Below are positions 1 to 9,448 of a DNA stretch of 9,448 nt, piece after piece (positions within the stretch are counted from its first letter, which is position 1; the number at the start of each line of letters is the position of its first letter). This stretch comes from a virus (Duplodnaviria; Heunggongvirae; Uroviricota; Caudoviricetes). The notes beneath the pieces were generated by a model. The model was not told where the DNA came from, did no database searches, and saw only the letters and a program-made list of their open reading frames with translations. A program made the position numbers and the translations under genes. The stretch lies in the IMG/VR virus record IMGVR_UViG_2563366961_000004, positions 1 through 9,448 of that record; one strand, written 5' to 3'.

Positions 1-295
1 AAGAACTGTTCACACTGTTCACCTTTCTTTTTTCTCCTTTTATTTCATAGTGATAGGTGGTGAATAATGGGTGAAGGGTGAACATTCGATTCTTCACCTC
101 CGGCATTCTGCCGGTGTGACTTGTGCAGGGGATTAATTTCCCGTGCTGAAATCACACCGGAAGAAAAAAGTTTTTTTTGATTTGATTGTTCACACTGTTC
201 ACCTTTCGTTTTTCTCTTTTAATTTCAGTGTGATAACGGGTGAATATACGGTGAAGGGTGAACAGTGGATTGTTCACCTTCGGGGGATTCAGGGA
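1..295. repeat. crr: crr-like cis replication region: two ~105-bp direct repeats (about 2-104 and 183-287) separated by ~78 bp, each carrying TGTTCACC-type octamer iterons in both orientations
   Basis: Seen directly: copy 1 and copy 2 align along their length (AACTGTTCACACTGTTCACCTTTC...GGTGAAGGGTGAACA...TTCACC). Iterons TGTTCACA/TGTTCACC at 7-23 and 188-204; inverted GGTGAANN copies at 59-84 and 250-265. In P4, as I recall, crr is two ~120-bp direct repeats with alpha-binding TGTTCACC iterons. Sits just downstream of the alpha gene. Confidence 0.65.
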
Positions 296-296
296 T

Positions 297-321
297 AAAA
301 AAAGACCGGCAGATGCCGGTC
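297..321 (-). terminator. Rho-independent terminator downstream of the alpha gene
   Basis: Stem GACCGGC (304-310) / GCCGGTC (315-321), loop AGAT; on the - strand it is followed by a U7 run (A7 at 297-303 on +). Lies 16 nt past the alpha stop codon (338-340). Confidence 0.6.
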
Positions 322-337
322 AGATGAGTCATGATGG

Positions 338-2671
338 TCAGGTTGTTGCAGGGTCGTCACATTTTGGCAGCCAGTCGCCGTAGCTTTCCTCTTTCAGCGT
401 CAGGTTGGTCTGTATCCCCTGTTTGGTATGGCGCTTCTCGTAATTCAGTCCGTATTCCTTCAGCATCACCGGCAGCCCCAGCCCGAACATTTTCAGACTG
501 AGTACATTCCGGTAGCCGTTTGCCTCCATGTAGGCCAGATAGGCGTGATAGAGGTATTTACGGTAATTACGCGGGATGATACTGGCGTTCCCCATATACA
601 TGCCGCTGGTCTGCGGCAGGGTTTCCAGATAGCCGATAAAATCAAACGTCGGGTCGGCATCCCGTTTGATGTTCAGTGCCTCGTCTGAGTTCTGCTGGGA
701 CTGAAGCAGTGACCGGGCGAGCATCGGGTCGCTGAACTTCTGCATCAGGTGACGCACGATGACCGCCAGCTCGCGGGTGATTTTGTCCTTAAGCTGCGGG
801 TCGCGCTCCTGCGGGGCTATCTGTTCCGGGAAGTGAATAATCACCCGCCGGCGTGACACGCCGCCGCTGCGGTCGGTGAAGCGCATCGGGTTATTGTTCA
901 CGGCCAGAATCACCGCCGGGATGTGCGTGGAGTACGCATCCCGGTATTTCGGGTCAACGGACACTGCATCGCCGCCGGTGATGGCCTTGAGTCCGGCTCC
1001 GTCGCCGCTCCATTTTTCCTGGTCCGGCAGGCGTATCAGTGAGAAGCCAGTTAACGCGGCACGTTCACGCGGGGATTCCAGCGTCTCGATGGTGGCCGAC
1101 GTGGCGTTATCCTCACCGGCCAGCAGGGTGGCGATTTCGGCCATGATACTTTTGCCGCTGCCGCCGGGACCGGTCACCTCCAGAAAGAGCTGCCAGTCGT
1201 AGCGGTTTGCCAGCACCATAAACAGTGCGGCCAGAATCACGTCGCGTTTTTCCGCACGGCCACCGGCGGCACGGTCAAGCCAGCGCCAGAACGCGGGGGC
1301 GTGGGTCTCCAGCGTTTCACCGTCCACCGGCGGGGTGAAATCCACATCGCACAGGGTGCGCATCCAGTGTGACGGACTGTGCGGATGGAACGTGCCGTTC
1401 TGCGTGTCGAGCACGCCGTTACGAAAGCCAATCAGGCGGCGGGAGGGGGCTTCCTGCTGCGGAATAATCAGTTTCAGGGTGTCCACCACGGAGGCCACCT
1501 TCCCGGAGGAGAACGGCGCGCGCAGACGCTGAAACAGCCCGGCCACATCCCGGGCAAAGTCCTGTGGCGGCAGCACCTTCCAGACACCATTTTCATAGCG
1601 GGACAGAAGCTGGCCGTTGGCATCGACCGCGAGCGCCTCGCCGTAATGCTCATAGATACGCATGGCCTTTTCGCTGGTACTCATGGCGGAAAACTCTGCT
1701 TCGCTCATGGTGTCGAACGGGCTTTCAGCCGGTGGCCGGATGGCATCGTAAATGGCCTTACGGGTGGCCTCCCCGCCGTACTGCGTGAAGGCATCATTCC
1801 AGTCACCGAAGACCGGCGGCAGGGCAACAACGCCCTCACACGCATCTGCGGCTGCGGCGGCTTTTTTCTGGCCGTCACCGCTGAGGTCACGGTCTGCGGC
1901 AAGGACAATCTGACAGGCCGGATGCTTCTGCCGGGCAAGGCTGGCCAGAGAAAGGAGGTTCACGGAAGAAAGCGCCACCATCACCGTTTCACCGGTCAGG
2001 TGATGCACGGTAAGTGCGGTCGCGTATCCCTCCGCTATCCACAGACGTTTTCCGGCCTGATTCTGTCCTTCAAGGGTGTGACAGGTGCCCCTGACCTGTC
2101 CGCCTTTCAGGGTGCGCTTACGGCCGTCAGCACTGATTAACTGAAGGTTAACCAGTTCGCCGCTGTCGTCATACAGTGGCACCACAAGGTCACCGGCGCG
2201 CCAGCTCACGCCACCGGCTCTGTGTGTGCCGGTCAGCATCCGGCATTCCCGGCCGGGAAAGCCCTTGCGGGTCAGGTAGGCGTTACCGGTTCCGGGACGG
2301 GTTTTTGCCATCAGGGTTTGTGCCAGTGCGGCGGCGTTCTTCCGGGCAGCGTCTGTTTCAGCAACGGCGGCGGCCGTCACTGCCGGGTCAGCCGGGGGCA
2401 GGCTGCCGGTCACGGCAGCCACCTTTGCGGCCGCGTCGGACGGAGAGACACCAAACACCTTTCCAACCAGTTTCAGGCCGTCACCGGCACCACACTGATT
2501 GCAGTACCAGGTGCCGCGCCCCTCCCTGTCATCAAAACGGAAGCGGTCACTCCCGCCACAGACCGGACAGGGCTGATGACGGTTTTTCAGCACCTGAATC
2601 CCCAGCGCCGGGAGAATACGCGGCCAGTGGCCGAGCGCATGGCTGACGGTGGCGGTTACGTTCATTTTCAT
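338..2671 (-). CDS. alpha: P4 alpha-type replication protein (primase-helicase with C-terminal origin-binding region), 777 aa
   Basis: 777-aa ORF, the length I recall for P4 alpha. N-terminal zinc ribbon CPVCGGSDRFRFDD...WYCNQCG; primase motif WIAEGYATA; Walker A VTGPGGSGKS in the helicase part. SD GGAGAA 7 nt upstream of ATG at 2671. Iteron clusters that alpha-type proteins bind occur at 1-295 and 5011-5114. Confidence 0.93.
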   Translation of the reverse strand: MKMNVTATVSHALGHWPRILPALGIQVLKNRHQPCPVCGGSDRFRFDDREGRGTWYCNQCGAGDGLKLVGKVFGVSPSDAAAKVAAVTGSLPPADPAVTAAAVAETDAARKNAAALAQTLMAKTRPGTGNAYLTRKGFPGRECRMLTGTHRAGGVSWRAGDLVVPLYDDSGELVNLQLISADGRKRTLKGGQVRGTCHTLEGQNQAGKRLWIAEGYATALTVHHLTGETVMVALSSVNLLSLASLARQKHPACQIVLAADRDLSGDGQKKAAAAADACEGVVALPPVFGDWNDAFTQYGGEATRKAIYDAIRPPAESPFDTMSEAEFSAMSTSEKAMRIYEHYGEALAVDANGQLLSRYENGVWKVLPPQDFARDVAGLFQRLRAPFSSGKVASVVDTLKLIIPQQEAPSRRLIGFRNGVLDTQNGTFHPHSPSHWMRTLCDVDFTPPVDGETLETHAPAFWRWLDRAAGGRAEKRDVILAALFMVLANRYDWQLFLEVTGPGGSGKSIMAEIATLLAGEDNATSATIETLESPRERAALTGFSLIRLPDQEKWSGDGAGLKAITGGDAVSVDPKYRDAYSTHIPAVILAVNNNPMRFTDRSGGVSRRRVIIHFPEQIAPQERDPQLKDKITRELAVIVRHLMQKFSDPMLARSLLQSQQNSDEALNIKRDADPTFDFIGYLETLPQTSGMYMGNASIIPRNYRKYLYHAYLAYMEANGYRNVLSLKMFGLGLPVMLKEYGLNYEKRHTKQGIQTNLTLKEESYGDWLPKCDDPATT

Positions 2672-2685
2672 GGTGTTGTTCTCCT

Positions 2686-3006
2686 TCAGTGCAGTACCGG
2701 CGCTTTTATGTGACGGGCACAGAGTTCATCCATCACAACCAGCCCGAGAAAGGACAGCGACGGCGCGGCCTTCAGGGGGCCGGATTCCATTAAATCTTCC
2801 AGCAGGGCACAGGCTATCTGACGCCCTTTTTCCTCACCGTGCTGGCGCAGATAAAAGCCTTCCAGCTCAGCGGCGATGGCCGCCTCCAGTGACTCAAGGG
2901 TGAGATGCGGGTAGCGGTGCTGACGTTCGCACACGGTCAGCCAGGCACAGGCGACAGCGCGACGGTAAAGGGCAGCACGTAAGACGGGCGGTAAGGGTGT
3001 TTTCAT
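2686..3006 (-). CDS. Hypothetical protein, 106 aa, immediately upstream of alpha in the left operon
   Basis: ORF with strong SD (GGGAGGAAA) upstream of ATG at 3006; ends 14 nt before the alpha start. Protein-like composition. Function not recognisable from sequence. Confidence 0.7.
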
Positions 3007-3141
3007 TTGTTTTCCTCCCTGTGACAGATGACTGCATTCCGTGCCGGTTGCATTAACTGATAAGGCATATCTGCGTCTCCTGAAGACGTGCGTATCCCTG
3101 CGCGAATACGCACATTTAATTTTTCGGGTGTCGTTTTTTAA

Positions 3142-3597
3142 TTACAGATAATTGCGGTAACTGTTATCCGGGGTGATTTCCGGGTCAGGCTCCGTGCGGG
3201 GAATTTCCCGCCATTCCCGCGCCACCGGTGCCGCCCGGCTGACCGGAACAGGGGCCTGCGGGTAAATATCCAGATATTTCTCCCGCCATTTCTGTAATTC
3301 CGGGTCTCCGGCCATTTCTTTCAGTACCGCATGCCGGTTTACGGGGCTGCGTTTAAACAGGTCAGGACGGTCACAGGTAAATTCCCGCAGAAAACGCCCC
3401 AGCGGGATGTCTGTGGTGCGCCCGTCAGCGAGGATACGCACAAGGATACTGAATTTACGGCGGTACGGGTTCCAGACAATGTCCGGGCAGCGGTACGGCA
3501 TTTCCCACGGAATACCGTCTTCCAGAATGCCGACCACGGCCACATCGGGAAAACCGGCAGAACGGTAAATCTCACCGGGCTGGGGAAAATCAAACAT
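3142..3597 (-). CDS. Hypothetical protein, 151 aa, left operon (size matches my recollection of a P4 'orf151')
   Basis: ORF whose ATG (3597-3595) overlaps the stop of the upstream 95-aa ORF in the sequence ATGTTTGA, consistent with translational coupling. No catalytic motif recognised. Confidence 0.75.
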   Translation of the reverse strand: MFDFPQPGEIYRSAGFPDVAVVGILEDGIPWEMPYRCPDIVWNPYRRKFSILVRILADGRTTDIPLGRFLREFTCDRPDLFKRSPVNRHAVLKEMAGDPELQKWREKYLDIYPQAPVPVSRAAPVAREWREIPRTEPDPEITPDNSYRNYL

Positions 3598-3877
3598 GCG
3601 TCTTGTCTCCCCGGTCTTTCTGCTGGGCGAGAAAATCGCGGCACAGGCCTTTGGCTTTCAGCTCATTCAGCACAAAATCAATATCTTCATTCAGGTAGCT
3701 GAAAATATGCGGAATGTAGAGCTGATGCAGGCCGGAGAGTTCACGGTGAATCAAATCACCCCCAACAAACTGGGATACGGCGCTGGCGCGGTTGAGCTTA
3801 TGGTAAGCCTCAATGCTGAGGTGTTCACGGGCGTCATGACGCGCTGAGACGGTCTGAGGGGCTTTTTTATTACGCAC
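3590..3877 (-). CDS. Small protein, 95 aa if started at GTG 3877; positional candidate for a P4 epsilon-like helper-derepression protein
   Basis: SD GGAGGT 5 nt upstream of GTG at 3877-3875; this start overlaps the stop of the upstream 65-aa ORF (GTGCGTAA). The longer 147-aa reading from ATG 4033 adds a Cys/Pro/Ser-rich, non-protein-like N-terminus and is disfavoured. Assignment as epsilon rests on position and size only. Confidence 0.55.
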
Positions 3878-4067
3878 GGGACACCTCCACCACCGGCAGA
3901 CGGGCAGCAAGGGAGAGCACATAGTCACGGACAAGGGAACGGCGGGCACTGCGTTCATCACCGGCGACGGTGCGAAGCATGCAGATACGGGGATGACGGT
4001 CTGCGCGACGGACAGCCGCAAACACAAAGACAAATTCAGGGTGTGAAGGGGTAAGGGTTGTAGCCAT
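3870..4067 (-). CDS. Small hypothetical protein, 65 aa, first translated ORF after the immunity leader (a kil-like position in P4 terms)
   Basis: ATG at 4067-4065 preceded by GGAGG with 8-nt spacing; it is the C-terminal part of a longer artefactual 214-aa ORF. Stop overlaps the GTG start of the next ORF. Function unknown. Confidence 0.4.
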
Positions 4068-4097
4068 GATGGCAGCCTCCGTTAGATAGCAGGTTAC

Positions 4098-4385
4098 GCT
4101 ATCGCCGGAGTTTCCACGCTCGATGGCGATAGCCCAGACGGGGGTGGAAATACCGGCTCTAACGGATACCGGCCAGCCCGGAGGCTGCCCCGCCTGAGCT
4201 ACCATTGACTCTGCGGCATAATGAGCGGACGCGGGCAGGATGCACGGAGTTCCATCTGCTCGACTGACCACACACCACACCATAATCTGGCGCTCTGTGG
4301 CGTTGATTGCGACACAAAAAAAGACGCATGGCGCGTCATATGTCGCCGTTAGATTGCTCGGGTTTCCACGCCCGGCTGCCGATTT
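4098..4385 (-). promoter_or_regulatory. P4-type immunity/leader region: two GCGUGGAAAC boxes (RNA sense) flanking one complementary UUUCCAC box; candidate CI-like small RNA and seqA/seqB/seqC-like architecture
   Basis: Seen directly: GTTTCCACGC on + at 4110-4119 and 4362-4371; complement GTGGAAA at 4144-4150; box 4110-4119 lies in the loop of a 9-bp hairpin (GCTATCGCC 4098-4106 / GGCGATAGC 4125-4133). In P4, immunity is an RNA (CI) whose seqB pairs with seqA and seqC on the nascent leader. Exact RNA ends cannot be set from sequence. Confidence 0.4.
4316..4337 (-). terminator. Intrinsic terminator inside the leftward leader, between the promoter-proximal box and the complementary box
   Basis: Stem GACGC (4323-4327) / GCGTC (4333-4337), loop ATGGC; followed on the - strand by U7 (A7 at 4316-4322 on +). 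Confidence 0.5.
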
Positions 4386-4400
4386 TGCGACAGCGGAAAA

Positions 4401-4430
4401 ACTATATCCGCAAATGCCGGAAAAAGGCAA
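4401..4430 (-). promoter_or_regulatory. Candidate sigma70 promoter for the leftward leader/operon (PLE-like)
   Basis: On the - strand: TTGCCT (-35; + coordinates 4430-4425), 18-bp spacer, TATAGT (-10; 4406-4401). Located between the vis stop (4466) and the first GCGUGGAAAC box. Hexamer matching only. Confidence 0.35.
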
Positions 4431-4465
4431 GCCAGAAAAAGGGACTTTTTGCAGAACAGGCATCA

Positions 4466-4732
4466 TCATGCGTCGTACCCCCGTTTGCGTCCGGCAATGC
4501 GGCCGGCCATCCATGCGGTGACTTCAGAGTGCAGCCAGGCCACATTTTTACCGCCAAGACTCACCTGCGGCGGAAATTCCCCCTTACGGATGAGTTCGTA
4601 GATGGTCGAGCGTGACAGGCCGCACAGGTGCATCACTTCCGGAAGACGTAAAAAACGCTCCTGTGTGATGTCCGGCAGCGGCATCAGTGGCGTCACAGGG
4701 GCGGGAGACGGGGAAGAAAAAACAGCTTGCAT
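4466..4732 (-). CDS. vis: AlpA/Vis-family small DNA-binding regulator/excisionase, 88 aa
   Basis: Core [50 protein letters not shown] is the characteristic AlpA-family helix-turn-helix region. SD GAGGT 6 nt upstream of ATG 4732. An internal start at Met17 (72 aa) cannot be excluded. Confidence 0.8.
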
Positions 4733-4834
4733 CGGGCTACCTCGTTAATGTCCATACAGCACCGGATAAGTCCGTCCGGCTTCGGGTAGCGCTTTATTTT
4801 GTGAATATTTTCGGCAGACGCAACAGGGGGGATT

Positions 4835-4852
4835 TGTTCCGGCAGCCTTACA
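4835..4852. promoter_or_regulatory. TGT-N12-ACA dyad, candidate Delta/Ogr activator site of a leftward late promoter (PLL-like) upstream of vis
   Basis: TGTTCCGGCAGCCTTACA fits the TGT-N12-ACA dyad that P2/P4 late promoters carry near -55. Lies about 100 bp upstream of the vis start on the - strand. Confidence 0.35.
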
Positions 4853-5010
4853 ATGGCTGTGCATTTTTTGTACATCAGCGCCAGATAGCTTTAAAACGCT
4901 CTGGAAGGAGCTGGAAAAAATTATAGTGAAATACAAATTGTTTTTTCTTATTTATTTCAGTGAATTAATAAAAATAAAAAGTAATAAACAGCACAAAAAG
5001 CCCATCAACG

Positions 5011-5114
5011 GGTGAACAGTGGTGAACAGACGGTGAACAGTCATTACTGCGATTGTTCACCCTTTAACTTACTGTATTACTTATCTTTTTTCTTATTGTG
5101 AACAGAGGTGAACA
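5011..5114. repeat. ori: ori-like iteron cluster: six TGTTCACC-type octamers next to an AT-rich block (about 4921-4990)
   Basis: GGTGAACA at 5011-5018, 5021-5028, 5032-5039; inverted TGTTCACC at 5054-5061; TGTGAACA at 5097-5104; GGTGAACA at 5107-5114. Same octamer as in the 1-295 repeats. Located between the divergent vis and sid genes. P4 ori is recalled to contain alpha-binding iterons. Confidence 0.65.
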
Positions 5115-5195
5115 GTAAAATATAAAAAAAAACAAACAGTAAGCCGGTTTTTCCTGCGACCTTTTCCTGGCTTGCCGGTCTGAGGATGAGTCTCC

Positions 5196-5213
5196 TGTGT
5201 CAGGGCTGGCACA
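5196..5213 (+). promoter_or_regulatory. TGT-N12-ACA dyad, candidate Delta/Ogr-dependent late promoter for sid-delta-psu (Psid-like)
   Basis: TGTGTCAGGGCTGGCACA at 5196-5213; centre about 80 bp upstream of the sid ATG (5286), compatible with an activator site near -55 and a short leader. Confidence 0.4.
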
Positions 5214-5285
5214 TCTGCAATGCGTCGTGTTGTTGTCCGGTGTACGTCACAATTTTCTTAACCTGAAGTGACGAGGAACCGGAAA

Positions 5286-6020
5286 ATGTCTGACAACACC
5301 ATCCCTGAATATCTGCAACCCGCGCTGGCACAACTGGAAAAGGCCAGAGCCGCCCATCTTGAGAACGCCCGCCTGATGGATGAGACCGTCACGGCCATTG
5401 AACGGGCAGAGCAGGAAAAAAATGCGCTGGCGCAGGCCGACGGAAACGACGCTGACGACTGGCGCACGGCCTTTCGTGCAGCCGGTGGTGTCCTGAGCGA
5501 TGAGCTGAAACAGCGCCACATTGAGCGCGTGGCACGCCGGGAGCTGGTACAGGAATATGACAATCTGGCCGTGGTGCTGAATTTTGAACGCGAACGCCTG
5601 AAAGGGGCGTGTGACAGCACGGCCACCGCCTACCGGAAGGCACATCATCACCTTCTGAGTCTGTATGCAGAGCATGAGCTGGAACACGCCCTGAATGAAA
5701 CCTGTGAGGCGCTTGTCCGGGCAATGCATCTGAGCATCCTGGTACAGGAAAATCCGCTCGCCAACACCACCGGCCATCAGGGCTACATCGCACCGGAAAA
5801 GGCTGTCATGCAGCAGGTGAAATCATCGCTGGAACAGAAAATAAAACAGATGCAAATCAGCCTCAGCGGTGAGCCGGTTCTCCGGCTGACCGGACTGTCA
5901 GCGGCAACACTCCCGCACATGGATTATGAGGTGGCAGGCACACCGGCACAGCGCAAGGTGTGGCAGGACAAAATAGACCAGCAGGGAGCAGAGCTTAAGG
6001 CCAGAGGACTGCTGTCATGA
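5286..6020 (+). CDS. sid: Sid, capsid size-determination (external scaffold) protein, 244 aa
   Basis: Protein begins MSDNTIPEYLQPALAQLEKARAAHLENARL, which I recognise as P4 Sid. ATG 5286 has SD GAGGAA 7 nt upstream; the ORF-track start at 5268 is an in-frame GTG 18 nt upstream and less likely. Stop overlaps the delta start (ATGA at 6017-6020). Confidence 0.9.
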   Translation: MSDNTIPEYLQPALAQLEKARAAHLENARLMDETVTAIERAEQEKNALAQADGNDADDWRTAFRAAGGVLSDELKQRHIERVARRELVQEYDNLAVVLNFERERLKGACDSTATAYRKAHHHLLSLYAEHELEHALNETCEALVRAMHLSILVQENPLANTTGHQGYIAPEKAVMQQVKSSLEQKIKQMQISLSGEPVLRLTGLSAATLPHMDYEVAGTPAQRKVWQDKIDQQGAELKARGLLS

Positions 6021-6517
6021 TTTACTGCCCGTCGTGTGGACATGTTGCTCACACCCGTCGCGCACATTTCATGGACGATGGCACCAAGATAATGATTGCA
6101 CAGTGCCGGAATATTTATTGCTCTGCGACATTTGAAGCGAGTGAAAGCTTTTTCTCTGACTGTAAAGATTCAGGAATGGAATACATTTCAGGCAAACAGA
6201 GATACCGCGATTCACTGACTTCTGCCTCCGGCAGTATGAAACGCCCGAAAAGAATGCTTGTTACCGGATATTGTTGTCGGAGATGTAAAGGCCTTGCACT
6301 GTCAAGAACATCGCGGCGTCTGTCTCAGGAAGTCACCGAACGTTTTTATGTGTGCACGGAGCCGGGCTGTGGTCTGGTGTTTAAAACGCTTCAGACCATC
6401 AACCGCTTCATTGTCCGCCCGGTCACGCCGGACGAACTGGCAGAACGCCTGCATGAAAAACAGGAACTGCCGCCAGTACGGTTAAAAACACAATCATATT
6501 CGCTGCGTCTGGAATGA
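6017..6517 (+). CDS. delta: Delta, late-gene transcriptional activator (tandem Ogr-like zinc-finger domains), 166 aa
   Basis: Two Cys4 modules (CPSCGH...CRNIYC and CCRRCK...CTEPGC); 166 aa as I recall for P4 Delta; translationally coupled to sid. Confidence 0.9.
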   Translation: MIYCPSCGHVAHTRRAHFMDDGTKIMIAQCRNIYCSATFEASESFFSDCKDSGMEYISGKQRYRDSLTSASGSMKRPKRMLVTGYCCRRCKGLALSRTSRRLSQEVTERFYVCTEPGCGLVFKTLQTINRFIVRPVTPDELAERLHEKQELPPVRLKTQSYSLRLE

Positions 6518-6590
6518 GGGCTGCCGGTTAACCCCGGCCGTCGCCGCACACCGTATTTTTATTCTTCAGCATGATGAGAAAGAGATAACG

Positions 6591-7163
6591 ATGGAAAGCA
6601 CAGCCTTACAGCAGGCCTTTGACACCTGTCAGAATAACAAAGCAGCATGGCTGCAACGCAAAAATGAGCTGGCTGCGGCCGAACAGGAATATCTGCGGCT
6701 TCTGTCAGGAGAAGGCAGAAACGTCAGTCGCCTGGACGAATTACGCAATATTATCGAAGTCAGAAAATGGCAGGTGAATCAGGCCGCCGGTCGTTATATT
6801 CGTTCGCATGAAGCCGTTCAGCACATCAGCATCCGCGACCGGCTGAATGATTTTATGCTGCAGCACGGCACAGCACTGGCGGCCGCACTGGCACCGGAGC
6901 TGATGGGCTACAGTGAGCTGACGGCCATTGCCCGAAACTGTGCCATACAGCGTGCCACAGATGCCCTGCGTGAAGCCCTCCTGTCCTGGCTTGCGAAGGG
7001 TGAAAAAATTAATTATTCCGCACAGGATAGCGACATTTTAACGACCATCGGATTCAGGCCTGACGCGGCTTCGGTGGATGACAGCCGTGAAAAATTCACC
7101 CCTGCGCAGAACATGATTTTTTCGCGTAAAAGTGCGCAACTGGTATCACATCAGTCTGTGTAA
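6591..7163 (+). CDS. psu: Psu, polarity suppression / capsid decoration protein, 190 aa
   Basis: 190-aa ORF beginning MESTALQQAFDT, in the sid-delta-psu order typical of P4; followed by a terminator hairpin and then cos. Confidence 0.9.
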   Translation: MESTALQQAFDTCQNNKAAWLQRKNELAAAEQEYLRLLSGEGRNVSRLDELRNIIEVRKWQVNQAAGRYIRSHEAVQHISIRDRLNDFMLQHGTALAAALAPELMGYSELTAIARNCAIQRATDALREALLSWLAKGEKINYSAQDSDILTTIGFRPDAASVDDSREKFTPAQNMIFSRKSAQLVSHQSV

Positions 7164-7232: not shown

Positions 7233-7327
7233 CGTTTTCCTGCCTCATTTTCTGTAAACCGTGCCATTCCCGGCGCGGTCTGAGCGTGTCAGTACAACTG
7301 CATTAAAACCGCCCCGCAAAGCGGGCG

Positions 7328-7346
7328 GGCGAGGCGGGGAAAGCAC
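7328..7346. other. cos: cos site core: 19-nt P2/P4 cohesive-end sequence
   Basis: Exact GGCGAGGCGGGGAAAGCAC at 7328-7346, the cohesive-end sequence I recall for P2 and P4. Preceded by a GC-rich dyad (CCCGCAAAGCGGG, about 7313-7325). In P4 cos lies directly after psu, as here. Confidence 0.8.
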
Positions 7347-7380: not shown

Positions 7381-9075
7381 TTAAAATCCATCAAGTAGCT
7401 GATTGATACCATTGCTCTCATCACAATTTATTTGCTCTAACTCAAATAAAGCACTGTCGTACTTTATTTGGGGAGTGTTTTCAAATGACAATAAAGATTC
7501 GATTAGTCTTATTTCTTTATCTTTATTTATGTCTTTAAGTGAGTCTAAAGTTAAATTGAATTTAACTTCGGGTTGTTTTCCTACTTCCATCATGATATTT
7601 GACTCCAACTCTGGATCAGTATTGAAGAATCGATGTGTCTTATGGAAATAACTAGGTTTTCTTGATTTTAAAATACTTAGTATATCCGACTTGATAGTGC
7701 TTTCCCGTGCTATCACAAGCCAATGGTTGGCAACCCCTGTGATGGTGGTAATGATGTGGGAGCCATTTTCACTTAGTTCATTAAAGGCTCTTAAGTCACC
7801 CTTGAAAAAATCATTTAGCAACTCATTTTCTTTATCTTTATCAAAAAGGTAAATTATTGAATTGCCGGCTAATGATATTTCAGCCTTGGTTTTTATAGTA
7901 TCGCAATTAAATTGCGCGGTCTCATTTTTTAATTCTTCGTAAGATGATTTTAAGTCTAAAAGCAAGCATTTTATTATACTTGATCTGAAAGATGAGTAAT
8001 CAATATCAGCACAAAGTGAAAATAAATTTCTGTGACGAATGGATTCAGGGCTGTAATATAGCTTTGTTAATATTTCTTTTTGGCGTTCTTTTGTGTCACG
8101 ACAGATAAACATAGCTGCAAAATATTCCATTAATGATTTGTGTGACCAACGAATAATAGCGCCTTCTTTGACAAATAATGGAACGGTTTCAATTAAGTCC
8201 TGAATAAAAAGAGATGGTGAAGTTGATATTCCGGGAATTTTTGAAATGATATTTTGCAATGTTATTTGCAGATCGTCTTTCGTAAACTCAATTTTACCTC
8301 CGTCTTTCAAACACCAAAAACCTAATCTCCTTAAGACCTGATGGAAGTCAGTGGAGTCTAGCTTAGAAAATTTTTCTCTAACATAACCAAGTTCTTTAGT
8401 TAAATCATGAGACTCATACAAAGCGTCAAATACTTGGCTATAAAATAACTCTCTTTTTCTTGGTATTATCGGTTTGAATTTATATGCACAAAATAATAAT
8501 GAAACATAAAGAGGTGTGGATAAAAATTCATTTAGATTATGACCATTCTCCAGTCGTAATCCTTTAATTAATTGAGATGAAATAGGGCCACGTCCATCAT
8601 ATCGACGTAATAGATCATACGCTTGATTCGTTTCTAATGGGTTGATTTTAAATCTTGAGAAACCATGTAGTTCTGATAAGAAATTATCATGACGAGAAGT
8701 TATAATTATTTTGCTTTCTGAGAAATTATTAGCAAAGGTACTTAGTAAATTTACGATCTTGGATTTGAGTTGTTGTGGGATTTCATCTATGCCATCGAAA
8801 AGATAAATAAAAGGGATTTTTTTGAGGCAGTTGTCTGAAATGTCTTCTCCTAAACCAAGTTGATGTTTCACCTGTAGCGCAAAATCATAATCTTTAGCAC
8901 GTCGTAATTCAATGTATATTGGAATGTATTCCTTATTAGCGATGCAATCTAAAGCAATTCTTTTCATTAGGGTGGACTTACCCATTCCTGCTGAGTCAGT
9001 GATTAATATATGATTGAAATTATCTAATAAATCTGCATTGTCTTTTATTAGGCATGTGTATGGTTTTTTTTTCAT
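7381..9075 (-). CDS. NACHT-type STAND NTPase (564 aa as drawn) with a ~230-aa C-terminal region of unknown fold; candidate anti-phage defence protein
   Basis: Walker A ITDSAGMGKST (aa 24-34); Walker B of the NACHT hhhhDGxDE type (IYLFDGIDEI); sensor-1-like IIITSR. AT-rich, unlike the P4-like core. The ATG sits directly on an A9 run and has no SD, and the upstream ORF joins it with a 1-nt shift, so this may be the downstream part of one larger gene. Confidence 0.8.
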   Translation of the reverse strand: MKKKPYTCLIKDNADLLDNFNHILITDSAGMGKSTLMKRIALDCIANKEYIPIYIELRRAKDYDFALQVKHQLGLGEDISDNCLKKIPFIYLFDGIDEIPQQLKSKIVNLLSTFANNFSESKIIITSRHDNFLSELHGFSRFKINPLETNQAYDLLRRYDGRGPISSQLIKGLRLENGHNLNEFLSTPLYVSLLFCAYKFKPIIPRKRELFYSQVFDALYESHDLTKELGYVREKFSKLDSTDFHQVLRRLGFWCLKDGGKIEFTKDDLQITLQNIISKIPGISTSPSLFIQDLIETVPLFVKEGAIIRWSHKSLMEYFAAMFICRDTKERQKEILTKLYYSPESIRHRNLFSLCADIDYSSFRSSIIKCLLLDLKSSYEELKNETAQFNCDTIKTKAEISLAGNSIIYLFDKDKENELLNDFFKGDLRAFNELSENGSHIITTITGVANHWLVIARESTIKSDILSILKSRKPSYFHKTHRFFNTDPELESNIMMEVGKQPEVKFNLTLDSLKDINKDKEIRLIESLLSFENTPQIKYDSALFELEQINCDESNGINQLLDGF

Positions 9076-9340
9076 TATCGTAATAAATGCTCATTGGCTC
9101 ATAAATATCTAGAAGCTCTACTGGAGTATTTTGAAAAGCTAAGGTATTCACAAGGGAGCATTGCCCTTTCACATTTGATAGGAAACGTTCAAGATTTTTA
9201 TTCAAGAAGCGTGCTGCATGTACATCTATTAAATAATTACGAACACTACTTTCTATGATAGGTAATATTTTATTCTTAATAACCTCCTTTGCCCATGGAA
9301 GGGATGCAGAGACTAATACATCAAGAGATACTGGTTGCAT
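9020..9340 (-). CDS. 106-aa ORF encoding a probable N-terminal module (~92 aa before the A9 tract) of the NACHT protein; separate frame, overlapping the NTPase ORF by 56 nt
   Basis: ATG at 9340 with a weak AAGG SD. Reads through the A9 tract as ...DNEKKT... and stops 18 codons later. Deleting one A gives an in-frame junction ...YYDNEKK-PYTCLIKDNADLL... with the NTPase. No known effector motif recognised. Confidence 0.5.
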   Translation of the reverse strand: MQPVSLDVLVSASLPWAKEVIKNKILPIIESSVRNYLIDVHAARFLNKNLERFLSNVKGQCSLVNTLAFQNTPVELLDIYEPMSIYYDNEKKTIHMPNKRQCRFIR

Positions 9341-9448
9341 GAATTATACCTTATTTTGGTAATGACTCCAACTTATTGATAGTGTTTTATGTTCAGATAA
9401 TGCCCGATGACTTTGTCATGCAGCTCCACCGATTTTGAGAACGACAGC

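Follow-up and report, generated by a model that had tools for sequence, protein, structure and literature searches.

The question raised by this locus is whether a segment of about 92 amino acids, encoded upstream of a putative defence NTPase in a window of 9,448 nucleotides (the whole stretch of DNA that was analysed), is a novel effector or adaptor domain. The initial annotation placed this segment in an open reading frame of its own and proposed that it is an unrecognised N-terminal module of the NTPase. The peptide on which this proposal was based, MQPVSLDVLVSASLPWAKEVIKNKILPIIESSVRNYLIDVHAARFLNKNLERFLSNVKGQ, is matched exactly by the minus-strand translation of positions 9076-9340 and is conserved in 69 diverse full-length homologues, showing that it is real coding sequence. 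It belongs to an open reading frame of 106 amino acids on the minus strand (9020-9340), which starts with MQPVSLDVLVSASLPWAKEV and extends 56 nucleotides beyond the ATG (position 9075) of the 564-amino acid open reading frame of the NTPase (7381-9075, minus strand), in a different frame. The longer frame begins inside the shorter one, in the +1 frame, and their overlap contains nine consecutive adenines on the minus strand (A9, positions 9064-9072; T9 on the plus strand) in the context GATAATGAAAAAAAAACCATAC. It is the extra A of this run that splits the two frames.

Deletion of one A joins both frames into a protein of 652 amino acids that matches WP_001183326.1 (P0001) from end to end at 100% identity. 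RefSeq labels this entry as an intact 'NACHT domain-containing protein'. Residues 1-92 of the 106-amino acid frame (to ...DNEKK) are in frame with the intact gene and represent its true N-terminus, whereas the 14 residues at the end, TIHMPNKRQCRFIR, are read in another frame and are a product of the frameshift. The 564-amino acid frame corresponds to residues 89-652 of the intact form and starts from an internal ATG that no Shine-Dalgarno-like sequence precedes. Each of the 25 complete E. coli genomes of RefSeq in which the gene is present has a tract of eight adenines (A8) and an intact coding sequence, and none has A9. Given that the repaired protein is identical to the intact WP_001183326.1, and that A8 is found in 25 of 25 genomes, the upstream open reading frame is the 5' part of the NTPase gene. 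The concern that it might be unrelated to the NTPase is therefore answered in the opposite sense, since both frames belong to the same gene. The gene model is corrected from two open reading frames to a single gene encoding 652 amino acids (7381-9340, minus strand), which carries a +1 A frameshift in this window.

It is virtually certain that the segment is the N-terminus of bNACHT22. WP_001183326.1 is listed under this name in Tables S1 and S2 of Kibby et al., as originating from ECOR36 and belonging to clade 14 (bNACHT01-like), a placement that comes from the phylogeny of those authors in Table S1 (bioRxiv 10.1101/2022.07.19.500537). The repaired protein agrees with the partial sequence that Table S2 gives and with the reported length of 652 amino acids. 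The bNACHT22 of Kibby et al. is the undivided A8 gene, whereas the window carries the A9 allele, split into frames of 106 and 564 amino acids. Two relatives are found in the same work: bNACHT24 (from ECOR35), which is near-identical to bNACHT22 and whose clone has the same IS1 end ahead of the gene, and bNACHT04, a Klebsiella relative that starts with MQPVTLD... (bioRxiv 10.1101/2022.07.19.500537). bNACHT22 was cloned and tested by these authors with no convincing phage defence: a decrease in T3 PFU that was not accompanied by the expected plaque-size change was distrusted by the authors, and bNACHT22, bNACHT24, and bNACHT04 all have an empty 'Phage Defense' column (bioRxiv 10.1101/2022.07.19.500537). 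For this reason, the role of this subfamily in defence is to be taken as putative. Clade 14 was also described there as an exception among bacterial NACHT proteins, in that it has no fused effector domain (bioRxiv 10.1101/2022.07.19.500537), and the idea that a short N-terminal extension is the means by which clade-14 bacterial NLRs kill has already been put forward for bNACHT11 (bioRxiv 10.1101/2024.12.17.629029). The segment can therefore no longer be called novel or unrecognised, as the protein is already catalogued as bNACHT22 and both the missing effector domain and the short extension of clade 14 have been described; as a discovery, the protein carries little weight.

The proposal that the NTPase is a STAND protein of the type used in defence was borne out by a Pfam NACHT match above cut-off, by the Walker motifs, and by NLR-like folds. 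The Pfam NACHT domain covers residues 113-247 (8599-9003, minus strand) with 34.5 bits against a cut-off of 26.7. Within it are found the Walker A motif DSAGMGKST (8971-8997, minus strand), of which GMGKST (residues 118-123) is invariant in the 69 homologues, and the Walker B motif FDGIDE (residues 181-186), where D182, G183, D185, and E186 are invariant in the same set; the two motifs conform to the patterns GxxxxGK[ST] and hhhhDGhDE. Kibby et al. annotated the NACHT module alone (residues 100-477), and Pfam now adds a C-terminal SNaCT5 domain, the presumed sensor, at residues 446-638 (7426-8004, minus strand; 31 bits against a cut-off of 27). This domain is the most variable part of the family, and a short non-repeat SNaCT C-terminus thus stands in place of LRR, TPR, or WD repeats. 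The full-length AlphaFold2 model, obtained with the family alignment as input, has a pLDDT of 85 and a pTM of 0.77, and its best fold matches in the PDB by Foldseek are NLRC4, NAIP, NOD2, and NLRP3. A PDB sequence search with the full protein gave no match at E up to 1, and the bNACHT11 structure 9ORF is absent from the results of that search and from the Foldseek PDB library (releases to April 2026). Matches of the full protein to PADLOC Avs2, PADLOC mad8, and NCBIfam EruA were rejected as weak P-loop matches. The protein is a single-gene bacterial NLR-related protein carried by a P4 satellite, namely bNACHT22 of clade 14, with a NACHT module and a SNaCT5 domain.

The surroundings of the gene bear on whether the effector could be encoded separately. 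The window is a P4-like satellite prophage beside ssrA in which the genes of the alpha primase-helicase, sid, delta, and psu are present, with the NACHT gene placed between psu and int. The int-psu interval of P4-like satellites is a defence hotspot (Rousset et al. 2022, PMC9122126), and the gene holds the same position here, with the difference that in this strain IS1 has been inserted between int and the gene. The end of IS1 (9358-9448) and the 9-bp target duplication AAAATAAGG (9349-9357) occupy positions 9349-9448. The insertion point separates the P4 integrase from the gene and lies 8 nucleotides ahead of the ATG; in loci free of IS1, the integrase stop codon is 3 nucleotides from the ATG of the NACHT gene. 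The initial annotation had considered that a partner effector gene could lie past position 9448, and the neighbourhood check found there the remaining part of IS1, the P4 integrase, and then ssrA. No partner effector gene is present in any of the loci examined, where int or IS1 lies upstream and psu downstream. A GC-rich hairpin with a T-rich tail (7309-7328, minus strand), located 53 nucleotides past the stop codon, is the likely terminator of a single-gene unit, and psu converges on the gene from the other side. A promoter scan gave nothing above shuffled expectation. bNACHT22 is a single-gene system.

The anatomy of the 92 residues determines how much of them can be regarded as a candidate effector. 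For this analysis, 120 homologues were gathered and 69 diverse full-length ones were aligned. In the AlphaFold2 model, the N-terminus forms helices at residues 6-12, 14-32, and 40-61, followed by beta-strands at 83-87, 95-98, and 110-114 before the Walker A motif at 118-123. Profile-profile alignment by hhalign against the bNACHT11 family, which was collected from the partial query sequences of bNACHT11 and bNACHT12 given in the supplement of the bNACHT11 preprint, matched residues 34-130 of bNACHT22 with residues 31-124 of that family (probability 98.1%, E 1.1e-13). In BLASTP against bNACHT11 (27% identity, E 2e-28), the alignment starts at residue 38. These starting points mean that residues 34-92 are conserved clade-14 NACHT sequence that precedes the P-loop, and the module of about 92 amino acids proposed at first is reduced to an extension of approximately 33-47 residues.

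Residues 34-61 (9158-9241, minus strand) contain the third helix (40-61) and lie inside the region of homology with the bNACHT11 family (residues about 31-60 of that family) according to hhalign, BLASTP, and the AlphaFold2 model. Residues 62-92 (9065-9157, minus strand) carry the conserved motifs QCS..NT.AF.N and L..IY.P and the first NACHT beta-strands, and end in the hairpin loop ...DNEKK. Judging from these alignments, residues 1-33 alone are lineage-specific. This part (9242-9340, minus strand), which starts with MQPVSLDV and comprises helices 6-12 and 14-32, is the putative effector element. If the boundary is instead placed according to the 45 residues that are unresolved in the cryo-EM structure of bNACHT11, the extension ends at about residue 47. 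The consensus of the N-terminus across the family is xLxxITLExAIxLAxPxAKKxF..KIxP, and P15, A17, and P27 are invariant in the 69 aligned homologues. The mean pairwise identity of residues 1-33 is 0.42, compared with 0.48 in the nucleotide-binding domain and 0.27 in SNaCT5, and the extension is thus under a constraint comparable to that on the ATPase domain. The candidate effector is in this way narrowed to residues 1 to approximately 33-47, with P15, A17, and P27, together with Q2 and P3, as the candidate functional residues.

Whether such a short segment can be a domain was explored at the level of sequence and of predicted structure. Residues 1-92 have no match in Pfam (E up to 1), PADLOC, or NCBIfam, in agreement with the initial statement that they hold no recognised domain. 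When residues 1-62 were modelled in isolation, a single long helix was obtained (pTM 0.43), and a Foldseek search of this model against the PDB returned 0 matches; given that the model is a single helix, a fold assignment for it is not meaningful. The structure prediction and fold search that had been suggested for this segment thus revealed no new domain. No transmembrane segment is found in the N-terminal extension, where the maximum of the 19-residue Kyte-Doolittle profile is 0.99 (residues 3-21), and helix 1 shows only moderate hydrophobicity and no amphipathic character.

To see whether the segment occurs in other architectures, 1.84 billion representative proteins were searched with a profile of residues 1-62, which gave 22 matches. 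All matches that were inspected belong to the same NACHT family (approximately 650 amino acids), either as members or as truncated or frameshifted fragments, and the few multi-stretch matches in longer proteins were taken as low-complexity false positives without inspection. The possibility that the segment is a mobile module was rejected, because among the inspected matches it never occurs alone or in another fusion. As modelled, residues 1 to approximately 33-47 are a short lineage-specific helical extension without an autonomous fold.

These observations weigh heavily against the proposal that the segment is a helical-bundle pore-former of the Bell/HeLo type (MLKL-like), or a death-like adaptor that recruits a separate effector. 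The first residues do resemble the MEPIS motif of Bell, Hell, and Babybell domains, and the whole region is helical in the AlphaFold2 model. Nonetheless, just 33-47 residues or so lie outside the NACHT module, and a Babybell domain has approximately 80 amino acids and a Bell domain approximately 100, with four helices each. In Bell and Babybell domains the four helices cup helix 1, whereas bNACHT22 has three helices, of which the third is common to the NACHT region. Bell, Bab, and Hell domains are autonomous bundles of 80-100 amino acids that are often activated by amyloids, and bNACHT22 has neither a bundle nor an amyloid motif nor a stand-alone occurrence. The single helix obtained in isolation with its 0 matches in the PDB, the lack of a Pfam match at E up to 1, and a locus without a partner gene point in the same direction. 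A bundle or adaptor of this kind is hardly credible for bNACHT22 and is largely refuted. The death-like or globular adaptor fold that had been suggested is likewise not seen, given that three helices in the full-length model become one long helix in isolation. The domain searches and the gene neighbourhood gave neither a six-helix death-like fold or an EAD domain nor a co-encoded effector with a matching adaptor. The suggestion that a small helical element or a membrane-active peptide serves as the effector fared better: it comes close to what has been found for bNACHT11 (bioRxiv 10.1101/2024.12.17.629029).

The comparison with bNACHT11 is the one that best informs on the possible function of the extension. 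In bNACHT11, the SNaCT domain binds several phage proteins and the active form is a heptameric ring (bioRxiv 10.1101/2024.12.17.629029). Its N-terminal extension of approximately 45 amino acids is required for defence and is unresolved (disordered) in the cryo-EM structure of the active heptamer. Substitutions D2A and P3A abolish defence and killing, with expression and assembly unaffected and puncta still formed, and activation leads to a plasmolysis-like death that depends on external osmolytes (bioRxiv 10.1101/2024.12.17.629029). The N-terminal consensus across 537 clade-14 sequences is MDPIT (bioRxiv 10.1101/2024.12.17.629029), and this motif has been linked to the N-terminal helix named 'MEPIS' that is found in Bab/Bell, fungal Hell, and Avast2 proteins (bioRxiv 10.1101/2024.11.07.622273). 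In Bab/Bell, Hell, and Avast2, N-termini of the MEPIS type are needed for killing and for membrane retraction (bioRxiv 10.1101/2024.11.07.622273).

bNACHT11 (WP_114260439.1, from Klebsiella) has the same tripartite layout as bNACHT22, with 639 amino acids versus 652, and both are single-gene systems with no recognisable effector domain. The two proteins share 27% identity across the NACHT module and are homologous from residue 34 of bNACHT22. Ahead of this point, the extensions, MDPITNEI in bNACHT11 versus MQPVSLDV in bNACHT22, are collinear and of equal length, A17-K18 align, and the common start can be written as M-[D/Q]-P-[I/V]-[T/S]-x-[E/D]-[I/V]. Set against M-[D/E]-P-I-[T/S], MQPVS agrees at M, P, V/I, and S/T, and has Q where D or E is expected. 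From the published description and the comparison with bNACHT11, bNACHT22 resembles the MEPIS domains in having a short, conserved, moderately hydrophobic helix at the extreme N-terminus, and its start fits the motif loosely.

The differences are also several. Position 2 is an essential D in bNACHT11 and a Q in bNACHT22; the bNACHT22 family has the invariant P15-x-A17...P27, whereas the bNACHT11 family has G12 and W29; and the C-terminal domains of the two proteins come from different SNaCT families. The strict motif M-[D/E]-P-I-[T/S] is present in 9 of 98 members of the bNACHT22 family and in 24 of 105 members of the bNACHT11 family, and many members of the former start with MITIE... or MLETI..., without the acidic residue-proline pair. 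When the isolated N-termini of the two families were aligned with hhalign, only the first 8-10 residues aligned (probability 12%, P 0.0025). Defence, triggers, and plasmolysis have been demonstrated for bNACHT11 and not for bNACHT22.

By analogy with bNACHT11, the extension may itself act as the effector, through clustering and membrane and osmotic collapse, and this is considered the most likely mechanism, with slightly better than even confidence. In the intact protein, the C-terminal SNaCT5 domain would bind a trigger derived from the phage, upon which the NACHT module would oligomerise into a ring. This ring would cluster the N-terminal extensions, whose MQPVS... start would be the equivalent of MDPIT/MEPIS. 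The clustered extensions could then act directly at the inner membrane, with the infected cell dying by a plasmolysis-like collapse, and a separate effector protein would be unnecessary. This mechanism is favoured given the collinear extension of equal length, the MQPVS start, the constraint on residues 1-33, the single-gene locus, and the precedent of bNACHT11. It is weakened by the absence of a defence phenotype in the subfamily and by an N-terminal profile similarity that is not significant beyond the first 8-10 residues. The Q-P start, the presence of the strict motif in only 9 of 98 members, and an extension that is not strongly hydrophobic also weaken it. The bNACHT22 subfamily would be a reasonable comparison case for the generality of the MDPIT/MEPIS mechanism.

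The same helices could also be read as a regulatory or structural element of the NACHT module, such as an autoinhibitory lid or an aid to oligomerisation, with killing taking another route, for example through a recruited host factor. The full-length AlphaFold2 model predicts residues 6-61 as helical with confidence (pLDDT 72-93), whereas in isolation they become one long helix, and this collapse suggests that the N-terminal helices depend on contacts made elsewhere in the protein. Helix 3 is already within the region conserved in bNACHT11, the extension is never found apart from this NACHT family among the matches inspected, and the D2A and P3A mutants of bNACHT11 still form puncta, all of which agree with a regulatory or structural role. 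Nonetheless, the equivalent 45 residues of bNACHT11 are disordered in the active heptamer and point mutations in them abolish killing, not expression or assembly, and neither the protein nor the locus of bNACHT22 offers another candidate effector. A purely regulatory or structural role is considered unlikely.

It is also conceivable, and still rather improbable, that the extension of the SNaCT5 subfamily (bNACHT22 and bNACHT04) is a different kind of effector, for example one that docks to a host target, with expression perhaps toggled by slippage between A8 and A9. The signature P15-x-A17...P27 that is proper to this family, the Q at position 2, and the relatives without an acidic residue-proline start are the reasons for considering it. 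If true, a distinct kind of effector or toggling between A8 and A9 could help to explain the absence of a defence phenotype in standard assays. The effector role in the manner of bNACHT11 is still the preferred reading of the extension.

The state of the allele in the window is a separate matter, and the polymorphism between A8 and A9 is a minor side observation. As sequenced, the frameshift would uncouple the extension from the ATPase. The 106-amino acid product has no ATPase, and the 564-amino acid frame has no extension, no first NACHT strands, and no Shine-Dalgarno-like sequence, so that the A9 allele, if real, is probably non-functional. Slippage of the RNA polymerase on A9 would restore at most a minority of transcripts. 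The allele, if real, is thus most likely inactive or strongly down-expressed. Alternatively, A9 may have arisen in the assembly, and the gene would then be intact.

L007 (GCA_000408485.1, contig KE137131.1) matches the window with 100% identity, and the exact 106-amino acid open reading frame is present on at least 15 other contigs from independent samples. Among the loci retrieved, at least two SNP haplotypes, separated by six differences, carry A9. On one haplotype with the same IS1 insertion, A8 is found in L001, a complete genome with an intact coding sequence, and A9 in the window and L007. The occurrence of A9 on at least two haplotypes, and of both A8 and A9 on one of them, suggests recurrent slippage in the tract. 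The frequency of A9 relative to A8 in the population was not derived from exact-protein look-ups (15 versus 5 contigs), given that a query of 106 amino acids tolerates downstream SNPs and one of 652 does not.

A little short of an even chance is given to the view that the locus is a decaying pseudogene, with the frameshift and an IS1 directly upstream, in which the 106-amino acid frame is functionless and the remaining 564 amino acids lack their N-terminus. The contrast between A9 here and A8 in every complete genome agrees with it, as do the IS1 at 8 nucleotides from the ATG, which separates the gene from the transcription unit of the integrase, the internal ATG at 9075 with no Shine-Dalgarno-like sequence ahead of it, and other truncated or frameshifted fragments of the same family in public data; the loss of a toxic abortive-infection gene would also be plausible. 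L001, however, has A8 and an intact coding sequence with the same haplotype and IS1 insertion, which makes the A9 change either very recent or a sequencing artefact, and no further disabling mutation is found in the 1.96 kb of the gene. Moreover, decay concerns the state of the allele and not the nature of the extension, and it is compatible with an effector mechanism like that of bNACHT11.

The adenine run could alternatively be a functional switch that tunes a toxic NLR, either by phase variation between A8 and A9 or by expression of A9 through +1 frameshifting or slippage during transcription. The slippage of E. coli RNA polymerase on nine or more consecutive A or T counts in favour of a switch, together with the two or more haplotypes that carry A9, the identical haplotype with a shared IS1 insertion on which both alleles occur, and the 15 or more contigs with the exact frameshifted open reading frame. 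Against it, A9 is seen in 0 of 25 complete genomes, and the A9 assemblies L003-L006 carry further homopolymer indels of the type produced by error-prone reads. The second open reading frame occupies the +1 frame, and -1 slippery sites do not usually yield such a product. Homologues, moreover, do not preserve the tract and have DNDKK, DNEQS, or similar sequences at this place. A switch is on this evidence decidedly improbable, and a recent inactivating slip or an assembly error is more likely than programmed switching.

The coding homopolymer of the bNACHT22-type NACHT gene, a run of nine adenines (A9) at positions 9064-9072 of the minus strand, is polymorphic in length across the fetched loci that carry this gene (L001-L012), with either eight (A8) or nine adenines. 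Among these loci, A9 is borne by at least two SNP haplotypes, and both lengths are seen on one identical haplotype with a common IS1 insertion. The 25 complete RefSeq genomes all lack A9 (0/25), but it is carried by at least 15 contigs from draft assemblies or metagenomes. The polymorphism could be the product of recurrent slippage or of recurrent assembly error.

Truncated, out-of-frame ORFs of other members of this protein family also occur in public data, as seen from the short database matches P0241-P0249. One of these, P0243, is a Klebsiella-type homologue of 96 aa in which the frame is lost directly after ...VELKK, where the intact bNACHT04 relative reads ...IELKKIYEP. Given the two lysine codons at this place, the protein sequence suggests another, putative A-rich stretch at the break. 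Genes of this family may often be broken at A-runs, or often be mis-assembled.

The end of an IS1 element and its target duplication occupy positions 9349-9448, and the element runs past the end of the window (9258-9983 in L007, the identical contig KE137131.1). IS1 separates the P4 integrase from the NACHT gene, its insertion point lying 8 nt before the ATG of the NACHT gene. The target duplication is of 9 bp (AAAATAAGG). The insertion has altered the last integrase codon from V to G, and the new stop codon of the integrase comes from the IS1 inverted repeat. Kibby et al. (bioRxiv 10.1101/2022.07.19.500537) cloned bNACHT24 in a construct that carries the same IS1 junction.

In the source genome, the P4-like satellite is integrated adjoining ssrA. 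In loci L004 (GCA_024496645.1) and L005 (GCA_024547185.1), the P4 integrase is preceded not by the smpB/ssrA neighbourhood but by another integrase and an AAA_15/AAA_21 ATPase gene, together with a D12-class methyltransferase in L005, which suggests tandem islands at the integration site or a different integration context.

Positions 1-7163 hold typical P4-like satellite gene content, namely the alpha primase-helicase (338-2671, minus strand), DUF5375-like, derepression and Icd/Ash-like ORFs, an AlpA-type HTH protein (4466-4732, minus strand), sid (5268-6020), delta/ogr (6017-6517) and psu (6591-7163). A further A9 homopolymer lies upstream of sid, at 5124-5132 on the plus strand.
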